A stretch of 64,000 bases of DNA from Escherichia phage RB16. The notes under the pieces are model-generated. The model made no database searches and had not been told where the DNA came from. It saw only the letters and a program-made list of their open reading frames with translations. Below, piece by piece: positions 6,569 through 52,234 of this stretch (positions within the stretch are counted from its first letter, which is position 1; every line of letters starts with the position of its first letter). The stretch lies in the sequence record NC_014467.1; one strand, written 5' to 3'. A program made the position numbers and the translations under genes.

Positions 6569-6796
6569 ATGATTATTCAGGTATCGGTTCAGGGCAATAC
6601 CCTGACAGTAACAAATTCCATTATGACCGCTATGGCTGCATGTCGTGATCATGTCATGTCAAACCCTCCGGTAACGGAAATTCTGGAAATTGATGTATGG
6701 GAAGATGGTGTGATCGAAGAATCCTTTGGTTTCACTCCGTTAGAGGAAGATTTACGCAAAATGGAACAATGGCTATGGCAAACTGTACCCCAATGA
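6569..6796 (+). CDS. hypothetical protein (~75 aa)
   Basis: ORF with GAGGTGAG RBS; start trimmed from ORF track 6536. Confidence 0.45.
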   Translation: MIIQVSVQGNTLTVTNSIMTAMAACRDHVMSNPPVTEILEIDVWEDGVIEESFGFTPLEEDLRKMEQWLWQTVPQ

Positions 6797-7050
6797 AACT
6801 ACCAAAACACACAACCCTGTTAACCCGCGAAAAACTTCATTCTGTTGAATGGAGTCCGTTAGATGTGATGGTGTTCGATCTGGAATCCAAAATCATTAAC
6901 GCTCATGTTAACGGATTGAGTATCTTTTCTGTTGAATTTGAAAAGATTCGCGGGTACAATGAAGCCTGTAAAGACAAATTGCGCGTCATGGTTGAAGCTA
7001 TGGGCTACATCGTGACTATTGAAGACAACAAAATGTGGATCGCGCTATGA
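6793..7050 (+). CDS. hypothetical protein (~85 aa)
   Basis: ATGA start/stop overlap with upstream ORF and with frd (translational coupling). Confidence 0.45.
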   Translation: MKLPKHTTLLTREKLHSVEWSPLDVMVFDLESKIINAHVNGLSIFSVEFEKIRGYNEACKDKLRVMVEAMGYIVTIEDNKMWIAL

Positions 7051-17780: not shown

Positions 17781-17857
17781 GGCCCTTTAGCTTAATTGGT
17801 TAGAGCGGGTGACTCATAATCGCGCGGTTGCTGGTTCGAATCCAGCAGGGGCCACCA
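17781..17857 (+). tRNA. tRNA with CAU anticodon (Met or lysidine-Ile)
   Basis: Cloverleaf folded by hand: acceptor GGCCCTT/AGGGGCC, D-arm, anticodon loop CTCATAA, T-arm GCTGG-TTCGAAT-CCAGC, encoded CCA. Confidence 0.75.
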
Positions 17858-17862
17858 AATAC

Positions 17863-17938
17863 GCAGGTGTAGTTCAATTGGTAGAATATCTGGTTTCCAT
17901 CCAGATTGTTGAGGGTTCGAGTCCCTTCACCTGCTCCA
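17863..17938 (+). tRNA. tRNA-Gly (UCC anticodon)
   Basis: Acceptor GCAGGTG/CACCTGC, anticodon stem TCTGG/CCAGA with loop TTTCCAT, T-loop TTCGAGT, encoded CCA. Confidence 0.8.
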
Positions 17939-49794: not shown

Positions 49795-49999
49795 GTTTAG
49801 CCCGTTCCTCTGCTACCGCATCAAACACCGCGTCTTCAACTTCTTTTTCGACGAATGAAATGATTTCATCAACCATGCGATCGATGTATAATTGATTGAC
49901 ATTGCGCGAATCTGGATCATCTTCTGCTGCATAATCCTGGTAAAGTTCTCCCAGTTCTTTCAGCTTGTGCTTTAACACTTTTTCTTCTTGAACTCTCAT
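49787..49999 (-). CDS. hypothetical acidic protein (70 aa)
   Basis: ORF track. Confidence 0.45.
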   Translation of the reverse strand: MRVQEEKVLKHKLKELGELYQDYAAEDDPDSRNVNQLYIDRMVDEIISFVEKEVEDAVFDAVAEERAKHG

Positions 50000-50091
50000 T
50001 CTTTATTACCCATTTTATAGCCGATCCCAATGACCAGCCCCATCAAAATAACCGCGCTTATCAAAAGCGCGAATTGTAGACCTATGCTCAT
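49996..50091 (-). CDS. small hydrophobic peptide (31 aa)
   Basis: Hand-translated MSIGLQFALLISAVILMGLVIGIGYKMGNKE; ATGA overlaps with both neighbours. Confidence 0.3.
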   Translation of the reverse strand: MSIGLQFALLISAVILMGLVIGIGYKMGNKE

Positions 50092-50231
50092 TTAAATTGA
50101 TCGTCCCATAGTTGCCACGCTTCCAGTTCATCATTGTATTCAGGGAGTGAACGTTCCCCTGGTTTCTTGACGTAATACCAGATAATGATAGCAACGGCGA
50201 TAACAGTACCGTAAAAGATAATTAATCCCAT
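50088..50231 (-). CDS. small membrane protein (47 aa)
   Basis: Hand-translated MGLIIFYGTVIAVAIIIWYYVKKPGERSLPEYNDELEAWQLWDDQFK; overlapping start/stop coupling. Confidence 0.3.
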   Translation of the reverse strand: MGLIIFYGTVIAVAIIIWYYVKKPGERSLPEYNDELEAWQLWDDQFK

Positions 50232-50557
50232 TAGTATAATCCTATTCCGGCGTTATATTCATCCACCAGATAGGTACGCAGTTTTTCGCAGCGTTCCTTA
50301 TTCGGTGCGCGGGTACAGAGTTTCATCATTGGTTCAGACTGCAAAAACTCACGCTGTTTAACCAGCTTCTGACGCTTATACAGGTGCGCATTTTCTTCGC
50401 CCCACACATAAGCCGCGTCGAGTTGTTCCGCGATCACCTGGTAACATACCGCAGTATCTTTAATGTCTCGATGGTCGCAGAGTTCAGACAGACGGTTGTC
50501 ATCAACAGCGAACACGGAACCAGAAACCAAAGTCAGCAACAGCGCAAGTTTTTTCAT
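50231..50557 (-). CDS. periplasmic Cys-containing protein (108 aa), possibly rI-like
   Basis: Signal peptide MKKLALLLTLVSGSVFA; sits upstream of tk as rI does in T4. Confidence 0.45.
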   Translation of the reverse strand: MKKLALLLTLVSGSVFAVDDNRLSELCDHRDIKDTAVCYQVIAEQLDAAYVWGEENAHLYKRQKLVKQREFLQSEPMMKLCTRAPNKERCEKLRTYLVDEYNAGIGLY

Positions 50558-50559
50558 TA

Positions 50560-50961
50560 TTACTCTCCCAGTACGTAAACAAAGCGGTCTTCGATTGAAT
50601 CGTTAACACATTCGTAAATTCCCCCAGCGCGTACAGCTTTACGAATGCCGGATTTTACGATTTCCATGATCTCTTTGTTGCTTCCCCATACATTCAAATT
50701 GAAGTATAGCGCACATTCGATTGGATAGTCTTCTACGTTGCGATACACATCATCACTTTCACATACAAACAGTATGCGCTTTTCTTCTCCATATTCGAAG
50801 TAAATGCTAAACGCGTTCATACTGTTTTTATCAACAGTGATTTGAGTGATTTTAACGTTCGGTTTGCTTTTGAGTTCAGCAAGAACACTCTGAATAATAG
50901 ATAACGCATTCAGTTTAATAAGTCCGCATTTTCCTACAATAACACGATGTGATGTACTCAT
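50560..50961 (-). CDS. hypothetical protein (133 aa)
   Basis: ORF downstream of promoter cassette. Confidence 0.5.
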   Translation of the reverse strand: MSTSHRVIVGKCGLIKLNALSIIQSVLAELKSKPNVKITQITVDKNSMNAFSIYFEYGEEKRILFVCESDDVYRNVEDYPIECALYFNLNVWGSNKEIMEIVKSGIRKAVRAGGIYECVNDSIEDRFVYVLGE

Positions 50962-51028
50962 AATTCAATCCTCAATAGTTGGTACACACATAATAAAAAA
51001 GCCCCTGCAAAAATGCAAGGGCTTTCGA
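50962..51028 (-). promoter_or_regulatory. promoter/stem-loop cassette (TTGCAT in hairpin AGCCCTTGCATTTTTGCAGGGGCT, 17-bp spacer, TATTAT)
   Basis: Read on minus strand. Confidence 0.55.
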
Positions 51029-51388
51029 TTAAATAATTTGCTTTTCTTCTAACAGTTTCGCGGTATGGTTAACCATGCGAGCATAATCACGGGCTTCTTT
51101 CTTCGTATACTTGAAGCCCGCGTTATAGCTTGCCAGCGCCTTTTTCAAGTCGCCTTTGTGGTAATCAAGCCAGTATTCCAGTTCATGAATGGCAAACTTA
51201 GAACCTCCCCGAAGGGATTCGAGCTTATTGATTACTACGCGTTTGGAATATGATTTATCCATCCGTGCGGAAGCACTGTTTACAGTGACTTGCCAACAGC
51301 CATAAGCATGATGACCTTTTTTGCCCTTTCCGGTGTTCTCACATGCGCGAGATTCGATCCAGGCGATAGCCGCTAAATGATATCCCAA
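51029..51388 (-). CDS. lytic transglycosylase (SLT) catalytic domain, possibly the 3' part of a frameshifted gene
   Basis: AIAWIESR...GCWQV...ASYNAGFKY motifs; ORF begins at TTG with no RBS and overlaps upstream ORF. Confidence 0.5.
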   Translation of the reverse strand: MGYHLAAIAWIESRACENTGKGKKGHHAYGCWQVTVNSASARMDKSYSKRVVINKLESLRGGSKFAIHELEYWLDYHKGDLKKALASYNAGFKYTKKEARDYARMVNHTAKLLEEKQII

Positions 51389-51677
51389 ACGTTTCGATTT
51401 TTCTTTTTTCAGCAGGTTTTGCAGTCGTTAGATCATAGTCGTTGCCAACTCTGAAAGCATACTCCAAAACCTTTTTCTGCTTTGGTGTAATTTCGTCCAA
51501 TTCCTTGACATATGCAGGGGCATTGGCTGGTGCTTTCTTGATCACTGTTGCCTGTTGAAGCGGAAGTGTTGACTGAACAGCAGGAAGTTTTTCGATGAAT
51601 TCTCCTAGCGGATCTGTCTTTGCGTGACCAGAAAAAGAGCATAAGAAAATGAAAGGTAGTATCCATTTGAATCTCAT
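51339..51677 (-). CDS. signal-peptide protein, possibly the 5' part of the SLT gene
   Basis: Signal peptide MRFKWILPFIFLCSFSGHA; ends in a poly-A tract where a 1-nt shift joins the SLT frame. Confidence 0.45.
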   Translation of the reverse strand: MRFKWILPFIFLCSFSGHAKTDPLGEFIEKLPAVQSTLPLQQATVIKKAPANAPAYVKELDEITPKQKKVLEYAFRVGNDYDLTTAKPAEKRKIETFGISFSGYRLDRISRM

Positions 51678-52234
51678 GGGCTTTCCTTATTATAAAAAGT
51701 TCCAAAATTTAACAACGCTGATTTTTTATAAGCGTTGCTTGCTTCTTCAGGATCATCAAAAGATCCCAAGTAGGTTGCTTTACCATTAATGGTTATTTGA
51801 GCAATCCACTTTTCATTTATAGTATTCCAAGTAACACCGATAAAACCAGAAGTATTAGTTTTCATCATACTTTTCTTTTGCTGATTTTGAGTATTAGTCA
51901 CTTCTTGCAAGTTGTCAATACCATCACCAAAAGAAACACCTTTCTTATGATCAATCATAACAGGAAGAGTACCTGTAGATACATAATACACGATGCGGTG
52001 TCTTCTAAACTGCTTTCCTTTGAAGTTTATAACGGTATATCCATCTTTCCGCAAGGTTCCTGCAAAAGAACCAACTTTAATTTTTCGGTTAGTTGATTTT
52101 ATCCATACACACGTACCGGAAACAACGTCAACGCTGATATATTCAAGTAATTCATCAATCAGTTGTTTTTCTTCTGATAGTGTACGCTCTCCCCATCCAT
52201 AAGATTTAGTCATGTTTAATACCTTTTGTAACAA
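51674..52234 (-). CDS. HNH-AP2 homing endonuclease (paralog 6)
   Basis: HNH motif (IDHKKGVSFGDGIDNL...NTQNQ) + AP2-like (FIGVTWNTINEKWIAQI). Confidence 0.8.
   Translation of the reverse strand: MLQKVLNMTKSYGWGERTLSEEKQLIDELLEYISVDVVSGTCVWIKSTNRKIKVGSFAGTLRKDGYTVINFKGKQFRRHRIVYYVSTGTLPVMIDHKKGVSFGDGIDNLQEVTNTQNQQKKSMMKTNTSGFIGVTWNTINEKWIAQITINGKATYLGSFDDPEEASNAYKKSALLNFGTFYNKESP

Follow-up and report, generated by a model that had tools for sequence, protein, structure and literature searches.

The similarity of vs.1 genes across T4-like phages to lytic transglycosylase (SLT) domains was noted by Nolan et al. in 2006 (PMC1524935), who used the domain match alone to infer that vs.1 acts in lysis. 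In a literature search, peptidoglycan-cleaving (1,6-anhydro-MurNAc-forming) activity was not found reported for any Vs.1 protein, that paper going no further than inference. Vs.1 proteins of about 215 amino acids (aa) make up a family for which tblastn returned matches in 1,676 phage records, T4 vs.1 included. Family-1 lytic transglycosylases have a catalytic Glu in an E-S motif, together with G-x-x-Q and A/S-Y-N-x-G motifs. With the family-1/GH23 enzymes Slt70, MltE, MltF, and EtgA (PF01464), Vs.1 shares the SLT match and the E-S, G-x-x-Q, and S/A-Y-N-x-G motifs; unlike these enzymes, Vs.1 is a stand-alone phage protein of small size whose N-terminal region of about 50 residues is poorly predicted, and in the copy described here the SLT domain is interrupted.

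That copy lies in Escherichia phage RB16 (a 176,788-bp record; RB43 group, genus Pseudotevenvirus), of which we analyzed a stretch of 64 kb, referred to below as the window. The RB16 locus shares with other T4-like Vs.1 genes (T4 vs.1; RB43, AAX78675.1; Lw1 gp147, YP_008060669.1) its place upstream of vs and tk and the architecture of a predicted signal peptide followed by an SLT domain. It differs from them in an extra A that splits the RB16 open reading frame (ORF) and in the first 9 residues of the protein.

Domain, predicted fold, and family of Vs.1

Once its reading frame was restored, RB16 Vs.1 matched T4 vs.1 at 31.5% identity (tblastn; E = 8e-10), and tblastn also matched the annotated vs.1 genes of JSE, 44RR2.8t, CC31, and RB14; the annotated vs.1 of RB43 was overlapped by the nucleotide match of the RB16 locus. 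The gene order PhoH ... vs.1, a 133-aa ORF, vs, ... tk is common to RB16, Lw1, RB43, and Miller, vs being the valyl-tRNA-synthetase (ValRS) modifier gene. Among PHROG families, Vs.1 matched phrog_600 (E = 2.5e-53), which spans the intact protein from end to end; ORF2, the downstream part of the RB16 locus, covers profile positions 50 to 174 by itself. The Pfam SLT profile (PF01464) scored 29.6 bits against ORF2 and 28.5 bits against the intact Vs.1 of Lw1, with a gathering cut-off of 21.3, and the upstream ORF1 had no match in Pfam.

The motifs AWIES, YGCWQV, and ASYNAG all occur in ORF2. In an alignment of 18 sequences, E108, G126, Q129, S183, Y184, N185, and G187 were invariant, and every one of these positions lies 3′ of the break in the RB16 gene. 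From what is known of the family, E108 is presumably the catalytic residue of Vs.1. An AlphaFold model of an ortholog that is 94% identical had a mean pLDDT of 73.5, with averages of 81 to 91 for the 10-residue blocks over residues 51 to 110, a region that brackets the break after residue 91. Confidence was low over residues 1 to 22, as a signal peptide would give. The predicted fold, alpha-helical and goose-type-lysozyme-like (GH23-like), thus spans the break in the model. By eye, the N terminus of ORF1 (MRFKWILPFIFLCSFSGHA, followed by KT) has a basic N-region, a hydrophobic core, and a small-x-small site (G-H-A), and so looks like a Sec signal peptide. Because the predicted fold and phrog_600 both cross the break while all of the motifs are downstream of it, the putative signal peptide and the predicted catalytic residues are placed on different polypeptides by the RB16 sequence as deposited. 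Members of the family are single ORFs of about 200 to 230 aa; RB16 vs.1 is not, and it is a disrupted member rather than one of another family.

Many vs.1 orthologs (Marshall, Margaery, Miro, STP55, Kamild, and others) are labeled "RegB endoribonuclease" or "site-specific RNA endonuclease." We rejected this identity: since Pfam and PHROGs return only SLT and phrog_600, the RegB label is probably a misannotation propagated from the neighboring regB gene of T4.

One gene, vs.1, split by an extra A

The first-pass annotation of the window had described two overlapping ORFs in different frames, the second of them an SLT ORF with no ATG or ribosome binding site of its own. Both ORFs are present, on the minus strand (Table 1). 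ORF2 can be opened only by a TTG, neither this TTG at 51388 nor the ATG at 51262 is preceded by a Shine-Dalgarno sequence, and the latter, the earliest ATG in frame with ORF2, lies 3′ of the codon for the predicted catalytic Glu. The protein encoded by ORF1 opens with MRFKWILPFIFLCSFSGHAKT; its residues 1 to 91 are those of wild-type Vs.1 (the predicted signal peptide and the N-terminal part of the predicted fold), and it ends in a 21-aa out-of-frame tail, RKIETFGISFSGYRLDRISRM, before a TGA stop. Five proteins encoded in the window matched deposited entries exactly: RB16p139, RB16p140, RB16p141, and the products of the flanking genes, RB16p142 and RB16p138.

Table 1. Features of the RB16 vs.1 locus (coordinates in the window)
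Feature	Position	Strand	Remarks
vs.1 locus, a single gene broken by one inserted A (+1)	51029..51677	-	649 nt
ORF1 (RB16p140)	51339..51677	-	112 aa; ATG start; exact match to ADJ55444.1 / YP_003858440.1
ORF2, SLT part with predicted catalytic residues (ES, GCWQ, SYNAG motifs)	51029..51388	-	119 aa; TTG is the only opener
RB16p139, last 77 aa of ORF2 from the ATG at 51262	51029..51262	-	ADJ55443.1
Shine-Dalgarno sequence of ORF1, AAGGAAAG	51681..51688	-	Good match
Predicted Sec signal peptide MRFKWILPFIFLCSFSGHA at ORF1 start	51621..51677	-	Read by eye
A6 run, site of the extra A	51404..51409	-	A5 in Lw1; frame-0 codons GAA AAA AGA
Adjacent A5 run	51398..51402	-	Same as in Lw1, by alignment
Stretch open in both the ORF1 and ORF2 frames	51342..51427	-	86 nt; from translations
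GAA codon, predicted catalytic Glu (AWIES; E108 of the intact protein)	51353..51355	-	17 codons 3′ of the break
Terminator-like hairpin directly after the vs.1 stop	50997..51026	-	13-pair stem and T-run; annotated as terminator at the same place in phage Miller
RB16p141, homing endonuclease HNH(AP2) 6, 5′ of vs.1	51674..52213	-	Stop overlaps the vs.1 ATG (ATGA)

The ORF2 frame is +1 relative to that of ORF1, and a deletion of one A, a +1 shift, or a -2 shift fuses the two. Because both frames are open only between the ORF2-frame stop (TAA, 51428..51430) and the ORF1 stop (TGA, 51339..51341), a frame change that fuses them must fall within the 86 nt between these stops. This stretch holds GAAAAAAGAAAAATC, in which both A-runs are included. 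The runs had been placed earlier in the overlap of the two ORFs; they do exist, and where both frames are open, but they lie just 5′ of the formal 50-nt overlap (51339..51388). The 30 nt around the shift site read CCTGCTGAAAAAAGAAAAATCGAAACG, and the peptide across the junction of the fused product would read ...TTAKPAEKEKSKR....

We compared the RB16 window with the intact vs.1 genes of Lw1, Miller, RB43, and EC-F2 in a five-way DNA alignment. Where RB16 reads GCTGAAAAAAGAAAAATCG, Lw1, whose allele is the nearest to that of RB16, reads GCTGAAAAAGAAAAATCG, that is, A5 instead of A6. The 649-nt RB16 span is colinear with the 648-nt vs.1 gene of Lw1, the extra A being the sole gap, and the same A is the single gap in the surrounding alignment block of 1,652 nt, which is 99.0% identical to Lw1. 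Removal of one A from the A6 run yields the amino acid sequence of Lw1 Vs.1, with 100% identity over residues 10 to 215, the end of the protein. Since the span aligns end to end with a single-ORF vs.1 gene, the neighborhood of ORF1 and ORF2 is no chance juxtaposition. ORF1 and ORF2 are the halves of one gene, vs.1, which an extra A interrupts after codon 91, and the earlier proposal that a 1-nt poly-A indel divides a single transglycosylase gene is borne out by the Lw1 sequence and by orthologs that are single ORFs.

Comparison with orthologs, which the first-pass annotation had named among its checks, showed that the split is not conserved. In Lw1, RB43, Miller, and EC-F2, vs.1 is one ORF of 211 to 216 aa. 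All five IMG/VR loci taken for their conserved junction 31-mer were unbroken across the junction, 18 of 19 protein-cluster representatives measured 201 to 230 aa, and a single feature lay under an internal query in each of 53 annotated records (from 60 sampled among 172 Pseudotevenvirus matches). Directly 3′ of the same homing-endonuclease gene as in RB16, the seven complete vs.1 copies found in metagenome/Logan contigs all encode 215 aa. No ortholog with two independently initiated genes, the arrangement that would have spoken against a single gene, was found among the copies examined, and those among them without an intact vs.1 had isolated breaks at positions other than the RB16 site.

No copy of the A6 allele turned up outside RB16. 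When searched for its exact pattern, IMG/VR, the GTDB genomes, and the JGI metagenomes gave no match, megablast did not find it in E. coli genomes, and a look-up of the exact ORF1 protein returned RB16 only. Among the copies examined, Lw1 alone had the A5-G-A5 motif; the others read GAAACGGAAAAA, GAAACGGAACAA, GAAACGGAAACA, or GAATCGGAAACA at this position, and most orthologs, which read the first or the last of these, lack the A-run.

Some other records in this survey, and the 3′ end of the gene, deserve mention. In a low-quality Logan assembly (P0019), the one exception among the 19 cluster representatives, vs.1 encodes 129 aa, and its frame breaks at a different A-run, the second in the gene, at the GKGKK site (about 51322..51327 in window coordinates); given the odd substitutions that accompany the frameshift, this break looks like an assembly error. 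The vs.1 protein cluster also contained a 70-aa fragment from Klebsiella phage CPRSA; for CPRSB, a related phage, the record lists 442 features over 180 kb. The terminator-like hairpin that follows the vs.1 stop is strong and is kept in relatives.

The two-gene annotation and recoding

Both the GenBank deposit and RefSeq present the locus as two unrelated "hypothetical proteins," RB16p140 and RB16p139, with no pseudogene flag. Taken at face value, the two annotated coding sequences would be separate, independently initiated, functional genes, a reading to which we give next to no chance. Neither the TTG nor the ATG available to the downstream gene has a Shine-Dalgarno sequence, and RB16p139 as annotated begins past the predicted catalytic Glu and carries no signal peptide. 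The last 21 residues of ORF1 are out of frame and have no counterpart in any ortholog, one predicted fold and one PHROG family cross the junction, and no ortholog examined has the two-gene arrangement; the comparison with orthologs effectively refutes this reading. The split is thus already in the public record, and the gene is a known and conserved one with no new mechanism. RB16p139 and RB16p140 should be merged as one vs.1 gene and flagged as frameshifted, or corrected after resequencing.

The first-pass annotation had left three options: a sequencing or assembly error, a pseudogene, and slippage-dependent expression. The third would have full-length Vs.1 made on purpose from the split gene, either by a +1 frameshift at A_AAA_AGA, in which tRNA-Lys would re-pair on AAA while a rare AGA waits in the A site, or by RNA polymerase dropping one A. 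A +1 slip, or the loss of one A from the mRNA, would indeed restore the wild-type peptide ...PAEKEKSKR.... AGA is rare in RB16 (4.3 per 1000 codons; 8% of Arg codons), the only tRNAs encoded in the window are tRNA-Met and tRNA-Gly, and there are documented cases in which frameshifting at a low level compensates for a homopolymer indel, for example, in HSV thymidine kinase (PMC5009743). Re-pairing in the P site from AAA to AAA is possible in a +1 shift here, which is necessary but far from sufficient. Given this re-pairing, the rare AGA, and a window with tRNAs for Met and Gly only, a low basal level of +1 slippage is conceivable.

Signs of a programmed site are nevertheless absent. The split at A6 occurs in no other copy examined, and the A-run is missing altogether from most orthologs. 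No upstream Shine-Dalgarno-like (GGAGG-like) stimulator is present, and the fold of 51300..51420 (-23.3 kcal/mol; z = 0.21) is no better than those of shuffled sequences. The classic A_AAA_AAG motif serves -1 shifts, whereas +1 or -2 is needed here. In bacteria, moreover, transcriptional slippage becomes productive or is counter-selected at runs of 8 to 9 A/T, and a run of 6 As is shorter than these; runs of about 9 are both selected against and used, and some IS elements use 8 (PMC1088944). Known programmed sites (prfB, +1; dnaX A_AAA_AAG, -1; A9 in IS elements and Thermus dnaX) have in common with RB16 an A-rich tract where frames overlap and, at the RB16 site as at these, tRNA-Lys can re-pair after the shift; unlike them, the RB16 site has the wrong direction for A_AAA_AAG, no stimulator, and a run of 6 nt that is not kept in orthologs (PMC1088944). 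We consider purposeful slippage very unlikely: with no conservation, six As, and no stimulator, this option is disfavored, while error and real mutation both stand.

A related possibility, to which we assign an equally small probability, is that A6 truly exists in the phage and leaks, by design or by chance: a few percent of ribosomes would shift +1 at A_AAA_AGA, or RNA polymerase would drop one A, and either event would supply genuine full-length Vs.1 in a far lower amount. If true, a homopolymer indel would be down-tuning a potentially toxic, predicted periplasmic peptidoglycan-cleaving enzyme in nature, and HSV thymidine kinase, with its "savior indel plus compensatory frameshifting," would be a similar case.

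The tRNA-Met(CAT) and tRNA-Gly(TCC) genes are adjacent in the window, at 17781..17938 (+), and agree with the pair of tRNAs that has been reported for RB16; a search of the 64 kb gave no tRNA-Arg(AGA).

Origin of the extra A

We are highly confident that RB16 vs.1 carries an unprogrammed homopolymer indel, mutation or artefact, that is private to the RB16 record. An ancestral A5 run would have become A6, with a change of frame after codon 91. From the sequence as it stands, one would expect a secreted 112-aa fragment that lacks the predicted catalytic Glu, and the SLT part would be left with neither a signal peptide nor a usable start codon; the allele would then be null or, at best, very leaky. 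The extra A may have arisen by replication slippage in the sequenced phage lineage or stock, or it may be an artefact, whether from an error in base calling or from selection for a frameshifted clone when the plasmid shotgun library was made. From the sequences at hand, we judge a real slippage mutation and a sequencing or cloning artefact to be about equally probable.

Gains in A-runs are a classic replication-slippage hotspot in T4, and frameshifts are known to have made pseudogenes in laboratory strains, for example, lambda PaPa stf. RB16 vs.1 is like the Streisinger-type frameshifts and lambda PaPa stf in being a one-base gain, in a short A-run, in a dispensable phage gene, and in one strain; unlike those cases, the change is known from a deposited sequence only. 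Downstream of its first 33 nt, vs.1 has two substitutions relative to Lw1. Both are synonymous, so the break, if real, would be recent. In that case, RB16 would be a Pseudotevenvirus that is wild type apart from a natural knockout of vs.1, and it would offer a cheap way to probe the role of a widely conserved, predicted phage transglycosylase.

On the side of an artefact, the RB16 genome came from the group of PMC2993671, and the same group reported that plasmid shotgun libraries of related T4-like genomes held too little of some regions, presumably because these are toxic when cloned (PMC1524935). A secreted peptidoglycan-cleaving enzyme, as Vs.1 is predicted to be, is a plausible victim of such toxicity, and a frameshifted clone could for that reason have been selected. 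In favor of a clean record are the results of a tblastn search of the window with the ORFs of Lw1, which flagged eight frame changes. Six of these were in unannotated frames or intergenic, and the rest were vs.1 and the homolog of gp061; of the genes in the window that have a homolog in Lw1, only vs.1 had a private frame break. The RB16 record therefore does not look error-prone, although one error is possible.

In the gp061 homolog (6569..6845, +), a 2-nt gap relative to Lw1 changes the C-terminal 24 residues. We rejected it as a second frameshift: the allele is 100% identical to that of GAP161 and shares 98 to 99% identity with the alleles of over 40 phages, which makes it a natural variant, with Lw1 as the outlier.

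The gene directly 5′ of vs.1 raised another possible origin. RB16p141, encoding the homing endonuclease HNH(AP2) 6, is inserted between RB16p142 and vs.1; Lw1, RB43, and Miller do not have this gene. The block inserted relative to Lw1 (51651..52213, -) brings its own first 26 nt of vs.1, so that the predicted signal peptide starts with MRFKWILPF instead of MKKIILATS; the first 9 residues of RB16 Vs.1 differ because this cassette replaced the 5′ end of the gene. The identical endonuclease protein occurs in the same arrangement in eight metagenome/Logan contigs, and EC-F2 has a homologous endonuclease gene in the same position. The contigs with the identical endonuclease all come from other phages and are at most 97.7% identical to RB16; the closest of them (L020) stops 47 nt short of the A-run.

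With the insertion directly upstream, the 5′ end of vs.1 replaced, and the break about 240 nt from the insertion boundary, the frameshift might have been a by-product of homing by this endonuclease or a mutation conferring self-immunity. We regard such an origin as extremely improbable and found no support for it: all seven other complete vs.1 copies that accompany this endonuclease gene are unbroken, and the A-run position reads GTTGAAACGGAAAAATCG both in endonuclease-carrying genomes and in Miller and RB43, which lack the endonuclease gene, so that this site does not tell homing donors from recipients.

The block at 49996..51651 is 99.0% identical to Lw1, compared with 81 to 97% over most of the window. 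This difference in identity points to a recently exchanged mosaic segment that ends exactly at the boundary of the endonuclease cassette.
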